This document shows, piece by piece, positions 33,001 through 36,000 of a stretch of DNA of 64,000 nt; within the stretch, counting starts at the first letter, position 1; each line of letters begins with the position of its first letter. Origin of the DNA: an uncultured Planctomycetaceae bacterium (GTDB lineage Bacteria > Planctomycetota > Planctomycetia > Planctomycetales > Planctomycetaceae); assembly GCA_963815195.1 (NCBI GenBank), contig CAWFGE010000012.1:928001-992000 (forward strand), in the 5' to 3' direction. A program made the position numbers.

Positions 33001-36000
33001 CGGTGCAGCAAGCCTCGGATTGAGAATCGAGCCTCGTAAGTCGCATCGCTGACAGAGGCCAACCGATGTTCGGTCCAACAATCTCGGCTCTTCCGGCGAA
33101 TCGGGGGGTAGACGTGGATGATCTTTTTGTGTGATGATCAATGAATGAATGGAATGATGGATTTCGCCTGCCCAAGGGGAGGTGAAAGAGCACACAAGAT
33201 ATTCTTTAACACCGTCGTCGTTGCCCCCTCATTCGCCGGAAGAACCACAATCTCTGGCGGAATCTTTCCGCCGTGCCGAACCCGACGGGCGCACGTTGCA
33301 TCTATGGGATGAAACCCCGTGATTCATCGGAACGACGCGGCGGCTTCTCTACGGAGCCGTTTCGGCATTTTCGCCGGTTTCGCGGTTCGCTTCCGGAATG
33401 GTTTTGACAACCGTGGAAGCGCGGGCTTATGCTCTACGGAAGAAGAACCGTTTTAACCATCCCATTTGGAGGACTCGCATCGAATGCTCCTCACTCATTG
33501 GTTGACGCTGTTTGAACGTGATTGGCAATTCGCTTTGGACGTTCGAACCAGCCGCGTGGGTAAAACTCCTTCACCTTCCGTCCTCTATCGCGGTAAGCAC
33601 AAAAACCCGGCAAAGCACCCTTTGCCCCCCGTTCCCCCCGCACCAGCCGCGAAACTCCCGGCCCACTGGAAAGCCCGCCGCCGGCAGTGCAATTCGACGT
33701 AGGAGGTTTTTGAGGGCCGAAGGCCCGGCCCTATGTCAGCCCAGGCCAAGCGCAGCGCCGGCCTGGGTTACGGATGATGGATGAAGCGCAAGCCCCAACG
33801 GGGCGGTCCTATACGGAATACTTGCAAGGGCCGATTGAACCACCTGCCGATCTTCGTTTTAGGACCGCCCCGTTGGGGCTTTGGGATCGTTCCCGCTGCC
33901 CAGGGCTTTCGCCCTGGGCTGACATAGAGCCGGGCCTTCGGCCCTATTTCGTAACTTGGAACGGTTGAGTTCTTCGGAATCAATCGTTCCGCAGTTTGAG
34001 GCCTTTCTCGGTGAGTTTGGCGCGGATTTCGTTGAGCGAGGTCACGCCGAAGTTGCGGACGCCCAAGAGTTCGTCGGCGGTGCGGGAAAGGAGTTCGCCC
34101 ATGCCCGTGATGCCCAGCCGCGACAGGCATTTGCGGGCCCGCACCGAAAGGTTCAAATCGGTGACCGGCGCTTCCAGCATCGCCCGCTCTTGCGGGGAGA
34201 GATCCTGCGGCTGGTAGCTGGGCGTGGCGGGCTTGGTCGGCCGGGCAAATTGGCCGATGCCCAGGCCCCGCGTGGTGAGCATCTCCTGAATCTCCTTAAG
34301 CGAGGTTTCGCCGAAGTTCTTGCCCGCGAGGAGTTCCTCTTCGGTGACGCGGGTCAGATCGCCCAAGGATTCGATGCCCGCGCGTTCCAGGCAGTTTCGG
34401 CTGCGGGCGGAGAGTTCGAAATCGGTGATGGGCACGCTCATCACCTGGTCGAGTTCCCGCTGGCGGCGGACGGCTTCCTCGTCGTAGTACATGTCGCTCG
34501 AGGCTTCGATGTCCTTCAGATACAACAGGGCCCGCTCGTGGTTGGGATCGACGCCGAGCACCTGGCGGAAACAATACGCGGCCGCGGGGTAGTTCTCGTT
34601 GTCTTCGTAGAGGAGGCCCAGGTTGATGAGGCCTCCCAGAAAGAACGGCGGACGGGAGAGGCTTTGCTCGTAGAGTTTGATCGCTTCTTCATCGTTGCCG
34701 AGGAGGTTGTTTTCGTTCGCGAGCCGGTACAGGGCTTCGGTGTGGTGCGGATCGATATCGACCGCGCGCTCGAAGTGTTCGATGGCTCCGAACAGATCGC
34801 CCCGGTCGTCCCGCAGGCAGCCCATCTGGAACGAATACTCCGCCCGCGTCACGCCTTCGCGGCCGGTGGACTTGAGCACGGCCTCGGCTTCGTCCAGGTC
34901 GCCCGATTGGCGAATGGCTCCCGCCTTGAACAGGGCGCAGGTGACTTTATCGTACCCGTACTTGGCCGCCTGATCGTACGCCTTGGCCGCGTCCTCATAT
35001 CGGCCGAGGTTGAACAAGGCCCGGGCGCGGTAGAACTCGGCGAGGCTGTTTTTGGAAACCTCTTCCAAGACGTCCGCGGCCTGGCGATGCTGGCCGAGCA
35101 GATACGACACGATGCCCAACACCAGCAAATCGCGGTCGGATGCGAGGCCGCCTTTGCGTTTCGAGGCCAATTCGCCCACGCACTGCCGGACTTCCGTGAG
35201 GTGCGGTCCCGGGATGATGATTTGGATTTCCTCGACGTCCTCTTCGCCAAAGCCCGGTTTCTCCAGCATGATTTCCCGGATTTTGGGGGCGTCGGGGGTG
35301 GGGATAGTTTGCGTTGTCACAGCGTGATCTCCGGTACGTTCCGACGGATACATGGAAACTCATTTCGCAGGGCCGGTCTTTGGCAGCGGGCGGACGAGAC
35401 AGAAATAGAATGAGGAGAGAAGATGGCGGATTGAGGAGAGAATTTACTTCGCCCTGATCCCGTCTGTACTCTCCTCAAACCTCTCCCTCCTCAACCGCTT
35501 TGCGAACAGATGATCACAAAGATCAACAGTTCGGTGAGGAGAATAAGTGTTGAACCGTAATCCGACCGCTGCCCGCAAGAACCTCTGCGTGCCCCGAAAC
35601 TCGCATTATTGTTCACCGGCCCAAAACTTGCAAGCATTCGGTTGACCCGGAGAGCCGAAGCCGATTCAATGGTTGGGGAACTTCGGGCCGACTTGCTCGA
35701 TCCTTGAATCTCGCCTTTAACCCAAACGGCCGCCATGGCTTCCAAGGATCTCAATCCTCCCGTTCCGCCCGAGAGCCGGAACGGGTTGATGAAGCTCGTG
35801 GAAATCACGTGCGAACTGGCGGCTCAGCACGAGTTGGACGAGATTCTCCGCACCGTCACGCAGGGAGCGTGCGAGGCTCTCGATTGCGAGCGGGCAAGCT
35901 TGTTTCTCCTCGACGAGAACGGAACAGAACTGTTCACCCGCACGGTGACGGAGTTGGAGATCGAGGAAATTCGCTTTCCCGTCGAGCGGGGCATCGCGGG

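Follow-up and report, generated by a model that had tools for sequence, protein, structure and literature searches.

A phylum-wide, single-copy planctomycete protein joining a TPR domain to two tandem RNA polymerase alpha C-terminal domains

Introduction

Through the C-terminal domain of its alpha subunit (alphaCTD), bacterial RNA polymerase recognises upstream promoter DNA and is contacted by most activators; to our knowledge, the domain is normally found on the polymerase only. What, then, might a separate protein do that carries two alphaCTDs behind a TPR region? The question is raised by gene X, which lies in a 64-kb stretch of DNA (the window) from an uncultured Planctomycetaceae bacterium. 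An earlier note on this DNA had described X as a free-standing, phylum-wide double-alphaCTD factor, a candidate general transcription accessory factor on which the literature was silent. That silence is only partial: our literature searches found no characterisation of such a protein, and none of this type is mentioned in the main text of either PMC10632474 or PMC12283558, but NCBI names the family by its domain and a TraDIS data set scores the probable counterpart of X as essential.

Results

Domain architecture of X

Gene X occupies 33980..35353 on the minus strand, encoding 457 residues from an ATG at 35353 to a stop codon at 33980-33982. The gene previously placed at 33980..35320 is a genuine ORF, and its minus-strand frame extends to this ATG; the GTG at 35320 is an alternative start that yields a form of 446 aa, identical to database protein P0002, and residue numbers counted from the ATG, as here, are therefore higher by 11 than those of the earlier note. 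The GC fraction of the region (0.59-0.64) is similar to that of flanking DNA, and an Rfam search over 32500-36000 returned a single sRNA match, downstream of X, and none within it. No RNA sequencing run is listed for 33700-35800.

Pfam finds the alphaCTD family PF03118 (RNA_pol_A_CTD) in two stretches of X, with a whole-protein E of 5.9e-43 and 144.9 bits against a cut-off of 23.8, and in the genome scan each copy alone exceeds that cut-off (78.2 and 73.7 bits). TPR_2 (74.3 bits) and TPR_1 (67.3 bits) pass their own cut-offs over about residues 72-275, where TPR_16 and others also match. The 20 Pfam hits at E<=0.01 include neither RNA_pol_A_bac nor RNA_pol_L, and the Pfam scan of X detects no HTH domain and neither of the RuvA domains PF01330 (RuvA_N) and PF07499 (RuvA_C). 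The NCBIfam rpoA equivalog TIGR02027 reaches 127.9 bits, under its cut-off of 227.8, and matches at profile positions 215-296 of 298 only; the PglW model NF033442 and PRK07758 give weak matches (E 3.9e-8 and 3.5e-11) far under their cut-offs. The Pfam and NCBIfam scans thus bear out the proposed order of TPR followed by two alphaCTDs, with no alpha N-terminal domain, and X, lacking that assembly domain, cannot be a conventional polymerase subunit. PF03118 matches exactly three times in this genome, twice in X and once in the genuine rpoA, which lies elsewhere (contig C1) with a CTD of its own, as had been claimed; its reading frame is broken in the assembly, the N-terminal and CTD-bearing parts lying in different frames near L001:1090-1100.

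The N-terminal end of X is poorly conserved (mean consensus fraction 0.27 over residues 1-69); residues 1-21 are predicted to be disordered, and three helices are predicted at residues 25-70 (35144..35281, minus strand). Pfam, the alignment and AlphaFold agree on a TPR superhelix at residues 71-288 (34490..35143, minus strand), the model showing paired helices from 73 to 288 (pLDDT >90). This region is acidic in the orthologues, with a mean net charge of -9.8 over residues 70-288, and its C-terminal half (171-275) is conserved better than its N-terminal half; short forms of X in some lineages, of about 310-340 aa, lack the first repeats. A Foldseek search of the PDB with the whole model ranked consensus TPR, OGT and SPINDLY TPR domains best, returning generic TPR proteins only and no functional hint.

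A conserved junction (residues 276-307), exactly 32 aa long in all 29 orthologues, leads from the repeats to the first alphaCTD. Most of it (residues 289-307; 34433..34489, minus strand) lies beyond the superhelix and includes a helix at 292-305, and its MYYDEE motif is nearly invariant: M288 without exception, Y290, D291 and E292 each in at least 90%. The first alphaCTD (CTD1) follows at residues 308-367 (34253..34432, minus strand; E. coli alpha numbering + 52), and a variable, disordered tether at residues 368-395 (34169..34252, minus strand), with pLDDT <50 at 372-382, a length of 24-33 aa across orthologues and a mean consensus fraction of 0.30, separates it from the second (CTD2) at residues 396-457 (33983..34168, minus strand; E. 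coli alpha numbering + 140). AlphaFold models the domains of whole X confidently, though not their mutual orientation (pTM 0.59). A rigid mounting of CTD1 on the TPR was considered and dropped, because residues 171-370 modelled on their own gave a pLDDT of 89.9 but a pTM of 0.56, and hence no confident fixed orientation; what we retain is a conserved junction of fixed length.

Conservation of the two alphaCTDs

Both copies align over the full domain and ungapped with RpoA alphaCTDs (PF03118; E. coli 1COO/1LB2/3K4G, B. subtilis 3GFK/1Z3E), the phmmer matches having an E of 1e-14 for CTD1 with E. coli 1coo and 5e-14 for CTD2 with B. subtilis 3gfk. In E. coli numbering, CTD1 has R317 at R265, N320 at N268, C321 at C269, E313 at E261, N346 at N294, G348 at G296, T350 at K298 and S351 at S299, and the corresponding residues of CTD2 are R405, K408, C409, N401, N434, G436, T438 and S439. 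R265, N268, C269, N294, G296, K298 and S299 are positions that we take to be the DNA contacts, or '265 determinant', of the E. coli domain, and we compared them in 29 orthologues of X and in 19 planctomycete RpoA CTDs. Arginine stands at the R265 position in every CTD1, CTD2 and RpoA CTD of this set. The N294, G296 and S299 residues are each kept in 29/29 CTD1 and 28/29 CTD2, and C269 in 29/29 and 20/29, respectively. The N268 position is N in 26 and K in 3 CTD1 sequences, and K in 17, R in 10 and N in 2 of CTD2, so that K or R at this position distinguishes CTD2 from RpoA. Threonine replaces K298 in both copies of X, and also in 18 of the 19 RpoA CTDs.

Position 297 is E in 28/29 CTD1, whereas the planctomycete RpoA CTDs mostly have K (14/19), and this glutamate could weaken contacts of CTD1 with the DNA backbone. 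Compared in pairs, CTD1 sequences are on average 65% identical, RpoA CTDs 53% and CTD2 sequences 49%, so that CTD1 is, on this measure, more tightly constrained than the polymerase's own alphaCTD. CTD2 is the more basic and the less conserved copy; mean net charges of the cores are -0.2 (CTD1), +2.6 (CTD2) and -0.6 (RpoA CTD), and by this estimate neither core of X is less favourable for DNA than that of RpoA. Among the presumed protein-facing residues, the E261 position is E in all 29 CTD1 sequences and mixed in the 19 RpoA CTDs (commonest D9, N3, E3, G2), while in CTD1 the E286 position is kept in 29/29 and the E288 position is E24/D4/Q1. An acidic residue at 259/261 proved only partly peculiar to X, planctomycete RpoA being mostly acidic there too.

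Within this genome, CTD1 and CTD2 are 43% identical to each other and 42% and 46% identical to the RpoA CTD. A tree places CTD1 in a group with support 96/92, which includes one long-branched CTD2, and the RpoA CTDs in another (99/92), with the CTD2 rows standing apart from both; the tandem is therefore older than the sampled radiation. In one family, f33, CTD2 has lost the NFGxTSL loop motif (row L024), and its score in G032 is just 39.7 bits. The signature blocks reported in both copies are kept and the DNA-contact positions align across the 29 orthologues; judged by sequence, both C-terminal modules are true alphaCTDs.

Distribution across Planctomycetota

A phylum-wide, effectively single-copy occurrence had been proposed, and the wider sample sustains it. 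X is matched in 197 of 201 sampled Planctomycetota genomes at E<=1e-10 and in 191 at E<=2e-39, with six weak matches (1e-12 to 5e-27; G137, G006, G059, G078, G084 and G090); the four genomes with no match are 59-81% complete, and all 129 high-quality genomes have it. The two-CTD build, which had previously been read from alignment coverage, was re-scanned with Pfam in 49 genomes, 46 of which have one tandem PF03118 pair plus a single match (rpoA); the exceptions are G022, with two pairs and two singles, and G006 and G010, with one match only.

The best 80 genome loci matching X are all from Planctomycetota, the 10 Atlas clusters listed are all so labelled, and among the top 120 matching proteins all names that give an organism give a planctomycete. 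Among the matches listed, then, X has so far been seen in Planctomycetota only. Searching a 50% representative library with the two-CTD piece gave 237 proteins at E<=1e-30, and metagenomic proteins exist with 3-11 tandem PF03118 stretches (P0123, P0172, P0243, P0178, P0261 and P0258), in none of which Pfam detects a TPR.

Gene neighbourhood and essentiality

In other genomes X heads an old housekeeping cluster, X-ruvA-ruvB-queH-spoIID-tgt-yajC-secDF, which is newly recognised here; none of its members is left around X in the window. Where coordinates of both X and ruvA are listed (108 genomes), ruvA follows X on the same strand at a distance of 9-961 bp in 77 genomes, and in 41 of 56 families, and it is directly downstream in 13 of 21 18-kb loci. 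The RuvA encoded downstream in other genomes carries all three RuvA domains (Pfam). In the best 80 loci no RuvA was found within 2.5 kb of X, by a search that recovered 13 RuvA ORFs in loci known to hold them; these loci have a Tgt-like ORF in 25 cases (23 downstream on the same strand), a YajC-like ORF in 19 and, in another 17, a SpoIID-like ORF adjoining X. Where ruvAB is gone from the locus, X thus remains with the rest of the cluster, and because it stays by tgt/yajC or spoIID after ruvAB has moved, we down-weighted a specific RuvA partnership based on adjacency. Two genomes, G001 and G172, each 99-100% complete, have X but no RuvA_N match, and a complex prediction for X with the downstream RuvA, run on the G046 pair with an alignment for each chain, gave no support either way. 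The conserved neighbours are ruvA/ruvB, queH, spoIID, tgt and yajC/secDF; transcription genes are not among them, and no conserved regulator gene accompanies X among the loci examined. Adjacency within this cluster says little on function, because the cluster mixes unrelated housekeeping functions.

In the P. limnophila TraDIS study, Plim_0602 has an insertion index of 7.4e-4 against a cut-off of 0.013, stands in the essential-gene figure S3 and is labelled both COG0202 and COG0457 (PMC10632474). We matched it to X by these COG labels, by the length that its index implies (1 in 1355 bp) and by a Clp ATPase neighbour as in P. hydrillae, rather than by sequence. RuvA (3.2e-3), RuvB (4.8e-3) and RuvC (5.9e-3) also fall below 0.013 and appear in the essential-gene figure (PMC10632474). 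The TraDIS paper itself warns that DNA condensation can yield low insertion indices (PMC10632474). Through its likely counterpart in this one species, X is probably essential.

Discussion

Our analysis supports the view of X as a free-standing protein that joins a TPR region to two genuine alphaCTDs, by its Pfam matches and conserved contact residues. From this build we infer DNA binding by X, the kind of DNA, its partner and any effect on transcription; RNA polymerase, UP elements and activators are candidate contacts suggested by domain identity. As a tentative reading, to which we give a probability of about 0.4, X would be a cytoplasmic, housekeeping DNA-binding adaptor, most likely a general transcription accessory factor. 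Both alphaCTD modules would bind the DNA minor groove and backbone, much as polymerase alphaCTDs do at A/T-rich UP-type sites. CTD1 would be presented by the fixed-length junction behind the TPR and CTD2 by its flexible tether of 24-33 aa, which would let the pair span two neighbouring sites, as the two alphaCTDs of one polymerase can. The acidic TPR superhelix would hold a protein partner, our guess being RNA polymerase holoenzyme or a regulator, and the invariant acidic residue at the E261 position of CTD1 may contact sigma region 4. Against a role in transcription count the non-transcription neighbours of X and the retention by planctomycete RpoA of its own CTD, which leaves no evident need for a second alphaCTD pair. 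In an unlikely but specific version, X would be a basal initiation factor, so far planctomycete-only, that gives the holoenzyme this second pair in trans, with the TPR docked on the holoenzyme, CTD1 beside sigma region 4 and CTD2 at a further upstream site. Planctomycetes would then rely, for recognising promoters, on an additional essential protein, subunit-like and not known from any other group of bacteria.

X departs from known systems in several respects. Compared with RpoA, it keeps the positions of R265, C269, N294, G296 and S299, but has two alphaCTDs per chain instead of one, and its CTD1 is joined to the TPR by the conserved junction where that of RpoA sits on a loose linker. The RNPP family (PlcR/NprR) and the large SARP/AfsR-type regulators combine TPRs with an N-terminal helix-turn-helix or winged-helix DNA-binding domain and act on particular operons. 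As these families are generally described, X shares with them the principle of coupling a DNA-binding module to a TPR superhelix suited to binding proteins or peptides; in contrast to them, it has two C-terminal alphaCTDs and no Pfam HTH, and it occurs throughout its phylum in single copy. With RuvA it shares paired modules of helix-hairpin-helix type, DNA binding being predicted for X, but its modules score as alphaCTD and not as RuvA domain II. The multi-PF03118 metagenomic proteins, the BREX kinase PglW model and the 95-aa PRK07758 all have the alphaCTD fold outside the polymerase, and X differs from the six metagenomic proteins in having a TPR.

A serious rival to the transcription reading, though one we rate as rather improbable, places X in DNA maintenance or nucleoid organisation: its alphaCTDs would bind DNA with no sequence preference, and the TPR would link X to further copies of itself or to proteins of recombination or replication, RuvAB for example. 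The same-strand ruvA neighbour in 77/108 genomes and 41/56 families favours it, as do the metagenomic proteins with 3-11 PF03118 stretches, which imply that elsewhere the alphaCTD serves, in repeats, to bind DNA. So do the indices of RuvA, RuvB, RuvC and Plim_0602, all under the cut-off, and the remark in the TraDIS paper that the DNA of planctomycetes is strongly condensed, probably via DNA-binding proteins (PMC10632474). The loci themselves weaken the RuvAB link: in the best 80, X keeps company with Tgt-like, YajC-like or SpoIID-like ORFs and has no RuvA within 2.5 kb, two nearly complete genomes have X and no RuvA_N match, and a cluster of unrelated functions makes adjacency poorly informative.

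The synteny with tgt, yajC and secDF, as strong as that with ruvAB, would equally suit a scaffold whose alphaCTDs no longer bind nucleic acid and have a purely structural or protein-binding role. Its housekeeping task would then be an unrelated one, perhaps connected with the secretion or tRNA-modification genes next to X; the glutamate at position 297 of CTD1 and the decay of CTD2 in f33 point the same way. We consider this very unlikely, as near-invariance of the R265, N294, G296 and S299 positions in both copies across the phylum would be hard to explain without ancestral DNA contact, and CTD2 is net basic. The odds seem similarly poor for a decoy or sequestering factor, whose alphaCTDs would mimic those of the polymerase to hold the regulators that usually dock there or occupy UP-type DNA and so damp transcription, the TPR sensing a signal or partner. 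Such a factor would account for the surface residues kept in CTD1 (at E261, E286 and E288) and for two CTDs per chain, the number on one polymerase, and TPR domains do commonly bind peptides; yet a decoy is seldom essential or found in all genomes of a phylum, no conserved regulator gene lies beside X, and its DNA-contact positions are kept as well as its protein-contact ones.

A whole phylum thus retains, in single copy, a separate protein with two alphaCTDs on a TPR scaffold. One of these domains surpasses the alphaCTD of the polymerase in conservation, and the screen of a single species suggests that the protein is essential. In the way they divide, in their cell envelope and in how they compact the nucleoid, planctomycetes already stand apart from model bacteria. 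Since a probable orthologue, Plim_0602, exists in a genetically tractable species, the role of X is directly testable, and X, as a predicted DNA-binding protein so far seen in this phylum only, offers a concrete handle on how planctomycete transcription or chromosome handling differs.

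Results

Domain architecture of a free-standing double-alphaCTD protein

The gene studied here, X, occupies an open frame of 457 aa on the minus strand, from an ATG at 35353 to a stop codon at 33980-33982, with the same GC content (0.59-0.64) as its flanks. A GTG at 35320 begins a 446-aa form identical in sequence to the database protein P0002; since residues 1-21 are unconserved in an alignment of 29 orthologues and predicted by AlphaFold to be disordered, either start is possible. We number residues from the ATG, which adds 11 to the residue numbers of the earlier note. The Pfam family RNA_pol_A_CTD (PF03118) matches X twice (whole-protein E 5.9e-43, 144.9 bits, cut-off 23.8), many TPR families match residues ~72-275, and the Pfam scan of the protein returned no alpha N-terminal domain, bearing out the earlier description of a TPR protein with two alphaCTDs (CTD1 and CTD2) and no alpha N-terminal domain. 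Domain membership tests likewise place X in the alphaCTD and TPR families. We rejected X as an RpoA because the test for the defining N-terminal domain failed to find it; the rpoA equivalogs of NCBIfam match X only over their last ~80 profile positions, far under their cut-offs. PF03118 has three matches in this genome, two in X and the third in rpoA on another contig, which agrees with the claim that the genuine rpoA lies elsewhere and keeps its own CTD. That rpoA, outside the window, is itself split over two reading frames at 1020-1140 of the fetched locus L001 (contig C1, about 33970-33990): the N-terminal part lies in the frame of L001:645-1211 and the remainder, including the CTD, in that of 1069-1731, with the switch near 'gatgtcgatcaacaaag'. 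The gene is essential, and its split is probably not genuine but a fault of assembly or sequencing.

The AlphaFold model of X, built on 29 orthologues (mean pLDDT 87.5, pTM 0.59), has three helices (residues 25-67), a TPR superhelix up to residue 288, a helix (292-305), CTD1 (306-361), a disordered stretch with pLDDT <50 (372-382) and CTD2 (387-449); with a pTM of only 0.59, the domains are confident and their mutual arrangement is not. Conservation climbs along the chain, the mean consensus fraction being 0.27 at the N-terminus, 0.38 and 0.57 in the first and second TPR halves, 0.59 at the junction, 0.78 in CTD1, 0.30 in the inter-CTD tether and 0.65 in CTD2. The junction (residues 276-307), which contains the motif MYYDEE, is exactly 32 aa long in 29/29 orthologues, and the tether is 24 to 33 aa. 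A rigid hold of CTD1 on the TPR was considered and not upheld: residues 171-370 modelled alone gave a pLDDT of 89.9 and a pTM of 0.56, on which such a mount cannot be asserted. The TPR is acidic (net charge -9.8), and core net charges are -0.2 for CTD1, +2.6 for CTD2 and -0.6 for the RpoA CTD.

CTD1 is more conserved than the polymerase's own alphaCTD

Ungapped phmmer alignments to solved alphaCTD structures fix the numbering of both copies: CTD1 residue p corresponds to E. coli alpha p-52 (1coo, E 1e-14) and CTD2 residue p to p-140 (best match the B. subtilis alphaCTD 3gfk, E 5e-14). Residues were compared over 29 CTD1, 29 CTD2 and 19 RpoA CTDs of planctomycetes (18 extracted from a set of 20 loci and one from the window's own genome), at positions named after E. 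coli alphaCTD, where residues such as R265 contact DNA. Arginine stands at the R265 position in all three sets (29/29, 29/29 and 19/19). The N294 and G296 residues are each kept in 29/29 CTD1, 28/29 CTD2 and 19/19 RpoA CTDs, C269 in 29/29, 20/29 and 19/19, and S299 in 29/29 CTD1 and 28/29 CTD2, the RpoA CTDs having S in 13 and T in 6. At the N268 position CTD1 has N in 26 and K in 3, CTD2 has K in 17, R in 10 and N in 2, and all 19 RpoA CTDs have N; at that of K298, T is found in 29 CTD1, 27 CTD2 and 18 RpoA CTDs. Position 297 is E in 28 CTD1 and Q in one, mixed in CTD2, and K (14), E (3) or R (2) in RpoA CTDs, and the E261 position is E in 29/29 CTD1, mixed in CTD2 and mixed also in the RpoA CTDs, where D (9), N (3), E (3) and G (2) are commonest. 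X carries two bona fide alphaCTDs whose ancestral DNA-contact positions are under strong purifying selection. In family f33 the NFGxTSL motif is missing from CTD2 (locus L024), whose Pfam score in genome G032 of that family is only 39.7 bits.

In a maximum-likelihood tree of 77 domains, the RpoA CTDs form one group (support 99/92) and CTD1 forms its own (96/92), with one long-branched CTD2 within it; CTD2 is separate from both. Pairwise identity averages 65% in CTD1, 53% in the RpoA CTD and 49% in CTD2. The grouping and the identities together indicate that the tandem is old, that each copy is orthologous across Planctomycetota, and that CTD1 changes more slowly than the polymerase's own alphaCTD.

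X is universal and single-copy in the phylum

Searched as a whole protein at E<=1e-10, X is matched in 197 of 201 sampled Planctomycetota genomes, 129/129 high-quality genomes and 167/171 genera, the four genomes without a match being 59-81% complete. Of the 197, six score weakly (E 1e-12 to 5e-27), perhaps by virtue of rpoA or a TPR alone; at E<=2e-39, 191 of 201 genomes are matched. The two-CTD build, read earlier from alignment coverage, held at the Pfam level: an alphaCTD re-scan of 49 genomes found one tandem pair, its copies a median of 84 nt apart, and one single match in 46, a single match only in G006 and G010, and an additional pair and single match in G022 (family f23). In G022 the second pair (C30:197269-197958, minus strand) lies within an 801-aa open frame, besides X and rpoA, and the further single (C16:8859-9026, plus strand) within a 1492-aa frame. 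Short forms of X (~310-340 aa) without the first TPRs also exist. The best 80 genome loci with X are all planctomycete (including Planctomycetaceae, Schlesneria, Planctopirus, Gimesia, Gemmataceae, Isosphaeraceae, Pirellulales, Thermoguttaceae and Kolteria), as are the named X-like proteins among the top 120 and the 10 Atlas clusters listed. Among the genomes surveyed, all Planctomycetota, X is thus universal and single-copy, as the earlier note had claimed for nearly every genome.

Several metagenomic proteins carry longer PF03118 tandems, with 11 (P0123), 9 (P0172), 6 (P0243), 5 (P0178), 4 (P0261) and 3 (P0258) stretches; none of the six has a TPR match, P0258 also matches sigma-70 region 4, and they may form a separate uncharacterised class.

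X probably heads an ancestral gene cluster

In the window X stands alone, apart from the genes of the cluster described below. Divergent from it and upstream is a GAF-SpoIIE (PP2C) phosphatase gene (35735-37021, plus strand; Pfam), followed by a 597-aa ORF without Pfam or NCBIfam match (37046-38839, plus strand); neither gene has a conserved place next to X in the other lineages that we examined. Downstream, ~950 bp without a convincing ORF precede an MMPL/RND-type transporter on the opposite strand (30547-33023, plus), which appears as a pair of overlapping ORFs (30547-32322, 32271-33023); the former has an Arg/Pro-rich tail that seems out of frame from ~32000, and the split may be a frameshift or assembly error. 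Convergent with X, 35 nt from its stop codon, is a full-model Rfam match to the Acido-Lenti-1 sRNA (RF01687; 33899-33945, plus strand; 44.7 bits, gathering score 37, E 4e-8) that ends in a GC hairpin and a T-rich tail.

Comparison of 18-kb loci from 20 other genomes and the window revealed a three-domain RuvA directly downstream of X on the same strand in 13 of the 21, followed in the loci examined by RuvB, QueH, SpoIID, Tgt, YajC and SecDF. Among the 150 matches listed for each, 108 of 201 genomes have both X and RuvA_N: RuvA_N follows X on its strand, starting 9-961 bp away, in 77, spanning 41 of 56 families, lies on a different contig in 22 and apart on one contig in 9. In none of the best 80 named loci does RuvA lie within 2.5 kb of X; the positive control of this search recovered 13 RuvA ORFs in loci known to hold RuvA. 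These 80 loci include 25 with a Tgt-like ORF (Pirellulales, Gemmatales and Isosphaerales; 23 downstream on the same strand), 19 with a YajC-like ORF and 17, of Planctomycetaceae, with a SpoIID-like ORF next to X; Pfam confirmed one example of each ORF type. The window's own genome has its RuvB, RuvC and a weak RuvA dispersed, either far away or on different contigs. RuvA_N is poorly detectable in the window's family (3 of 8 other genomes at E<=1e-5), and its sole match in this genome scores 26 bits (C15:114009-114158); in this lineage RuvA has apparently diverged. On the simplest reading, an ancient cluster, X-ruvA-ruvB-queH-spoIID-tgt-yajC-secDF, began with X and decayed stepwise, X remaining with whatever is left, which marks X as a housekeeping gene.

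A probable counterpart scores as essential

In a TraDIS screen in Planctopirus limnophila (PMC10632474 and its supplementary files 1 and 5), Plim_0602 has the label COG0202 (RNA polymerase alpha) as well as COG0457 (TPR), has an insertion index of 7.38e-4 (lowest cut-off 0.013) and appears in Fig. S3, whose genes the text describes as essential; the main text does not discuss it. The index equals one insertion in 1355 bp, consistent with a gene of ~450 aa. The neighbouring Plim_0603 is a Clp-type ATPase (COG0542; PMC10632474), and such an ATPase also adjoins X in Planctopirus hydrillae (locus L076). From the COG labels, implied length and Clp ATPase neighbour, we infer that Plim_0602 is probably the X orthologue. 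RuvA (Plim_2446), RuvB (Plim_2430) and RuvC (Plim_2444) also have indices below the 0.013 cut-off (3-6e-3) and are listed in Fig. S3 with the essential genes (PMC10632474, supplementary file 5, Fig. S1, Fig. S3). The authors caution that insertion indices can be lowered by DNA condensation (PMC10632474). X is probably essential.

Discussion

X would bind DNA with both its CTDs, of which CTD2 could extend to an adjacent site, while its TPR would hold a protein partner. We posit, with a probability of about 0.4, that X may have a general transcription accessory role. This reading is favoured because contact with promoter-upstream DNA and activators is the only known job of an alphaCTD, and because the invariant acidic residue of CTD1 falls at the position (E261) that in E. 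coli contacts sigma region 4. Action in DNA maintenance or nucleoid organisation appears less likely; the ruvAB neighbourhood, co-essentiality with RuvABC and the occurrence in metagenomes of proteins with 3-11 alphaCTDs in tandem speak for it, and the proposed stepwise decay of the cluster, with X kept beside its remnants, argues against a RuvA-specific partnership. In E. coli the genes for RuvA, RuvB and RuvC are dispensable. That X is a decoy for alphaCTD-binding regulators, or has a role without DNA involvement, we regard in either case as improbable.

The earlier statement that the literature holds nothing on such a protein stands in that we found no functional study, and needs amending in that NCBI names X by its domain ('DNA-directed RNA polymerase subunit alpha C-terminal domain-containing protein') and the TraDIS data score its probable counterpart; JGI mislabels X as an alpha subunit. 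What our work adds is the ancestral gene cluster around X, the proof of the two-CTD build at the Pfam level across the phylum, the greater conservation of CTD1 than of RpoA's own CTD, and verification at source of what the TraDIS data say on the counterpart. X combines domains already known in an architecture that is uncharacterised, found throughout the phylum and probably essential.
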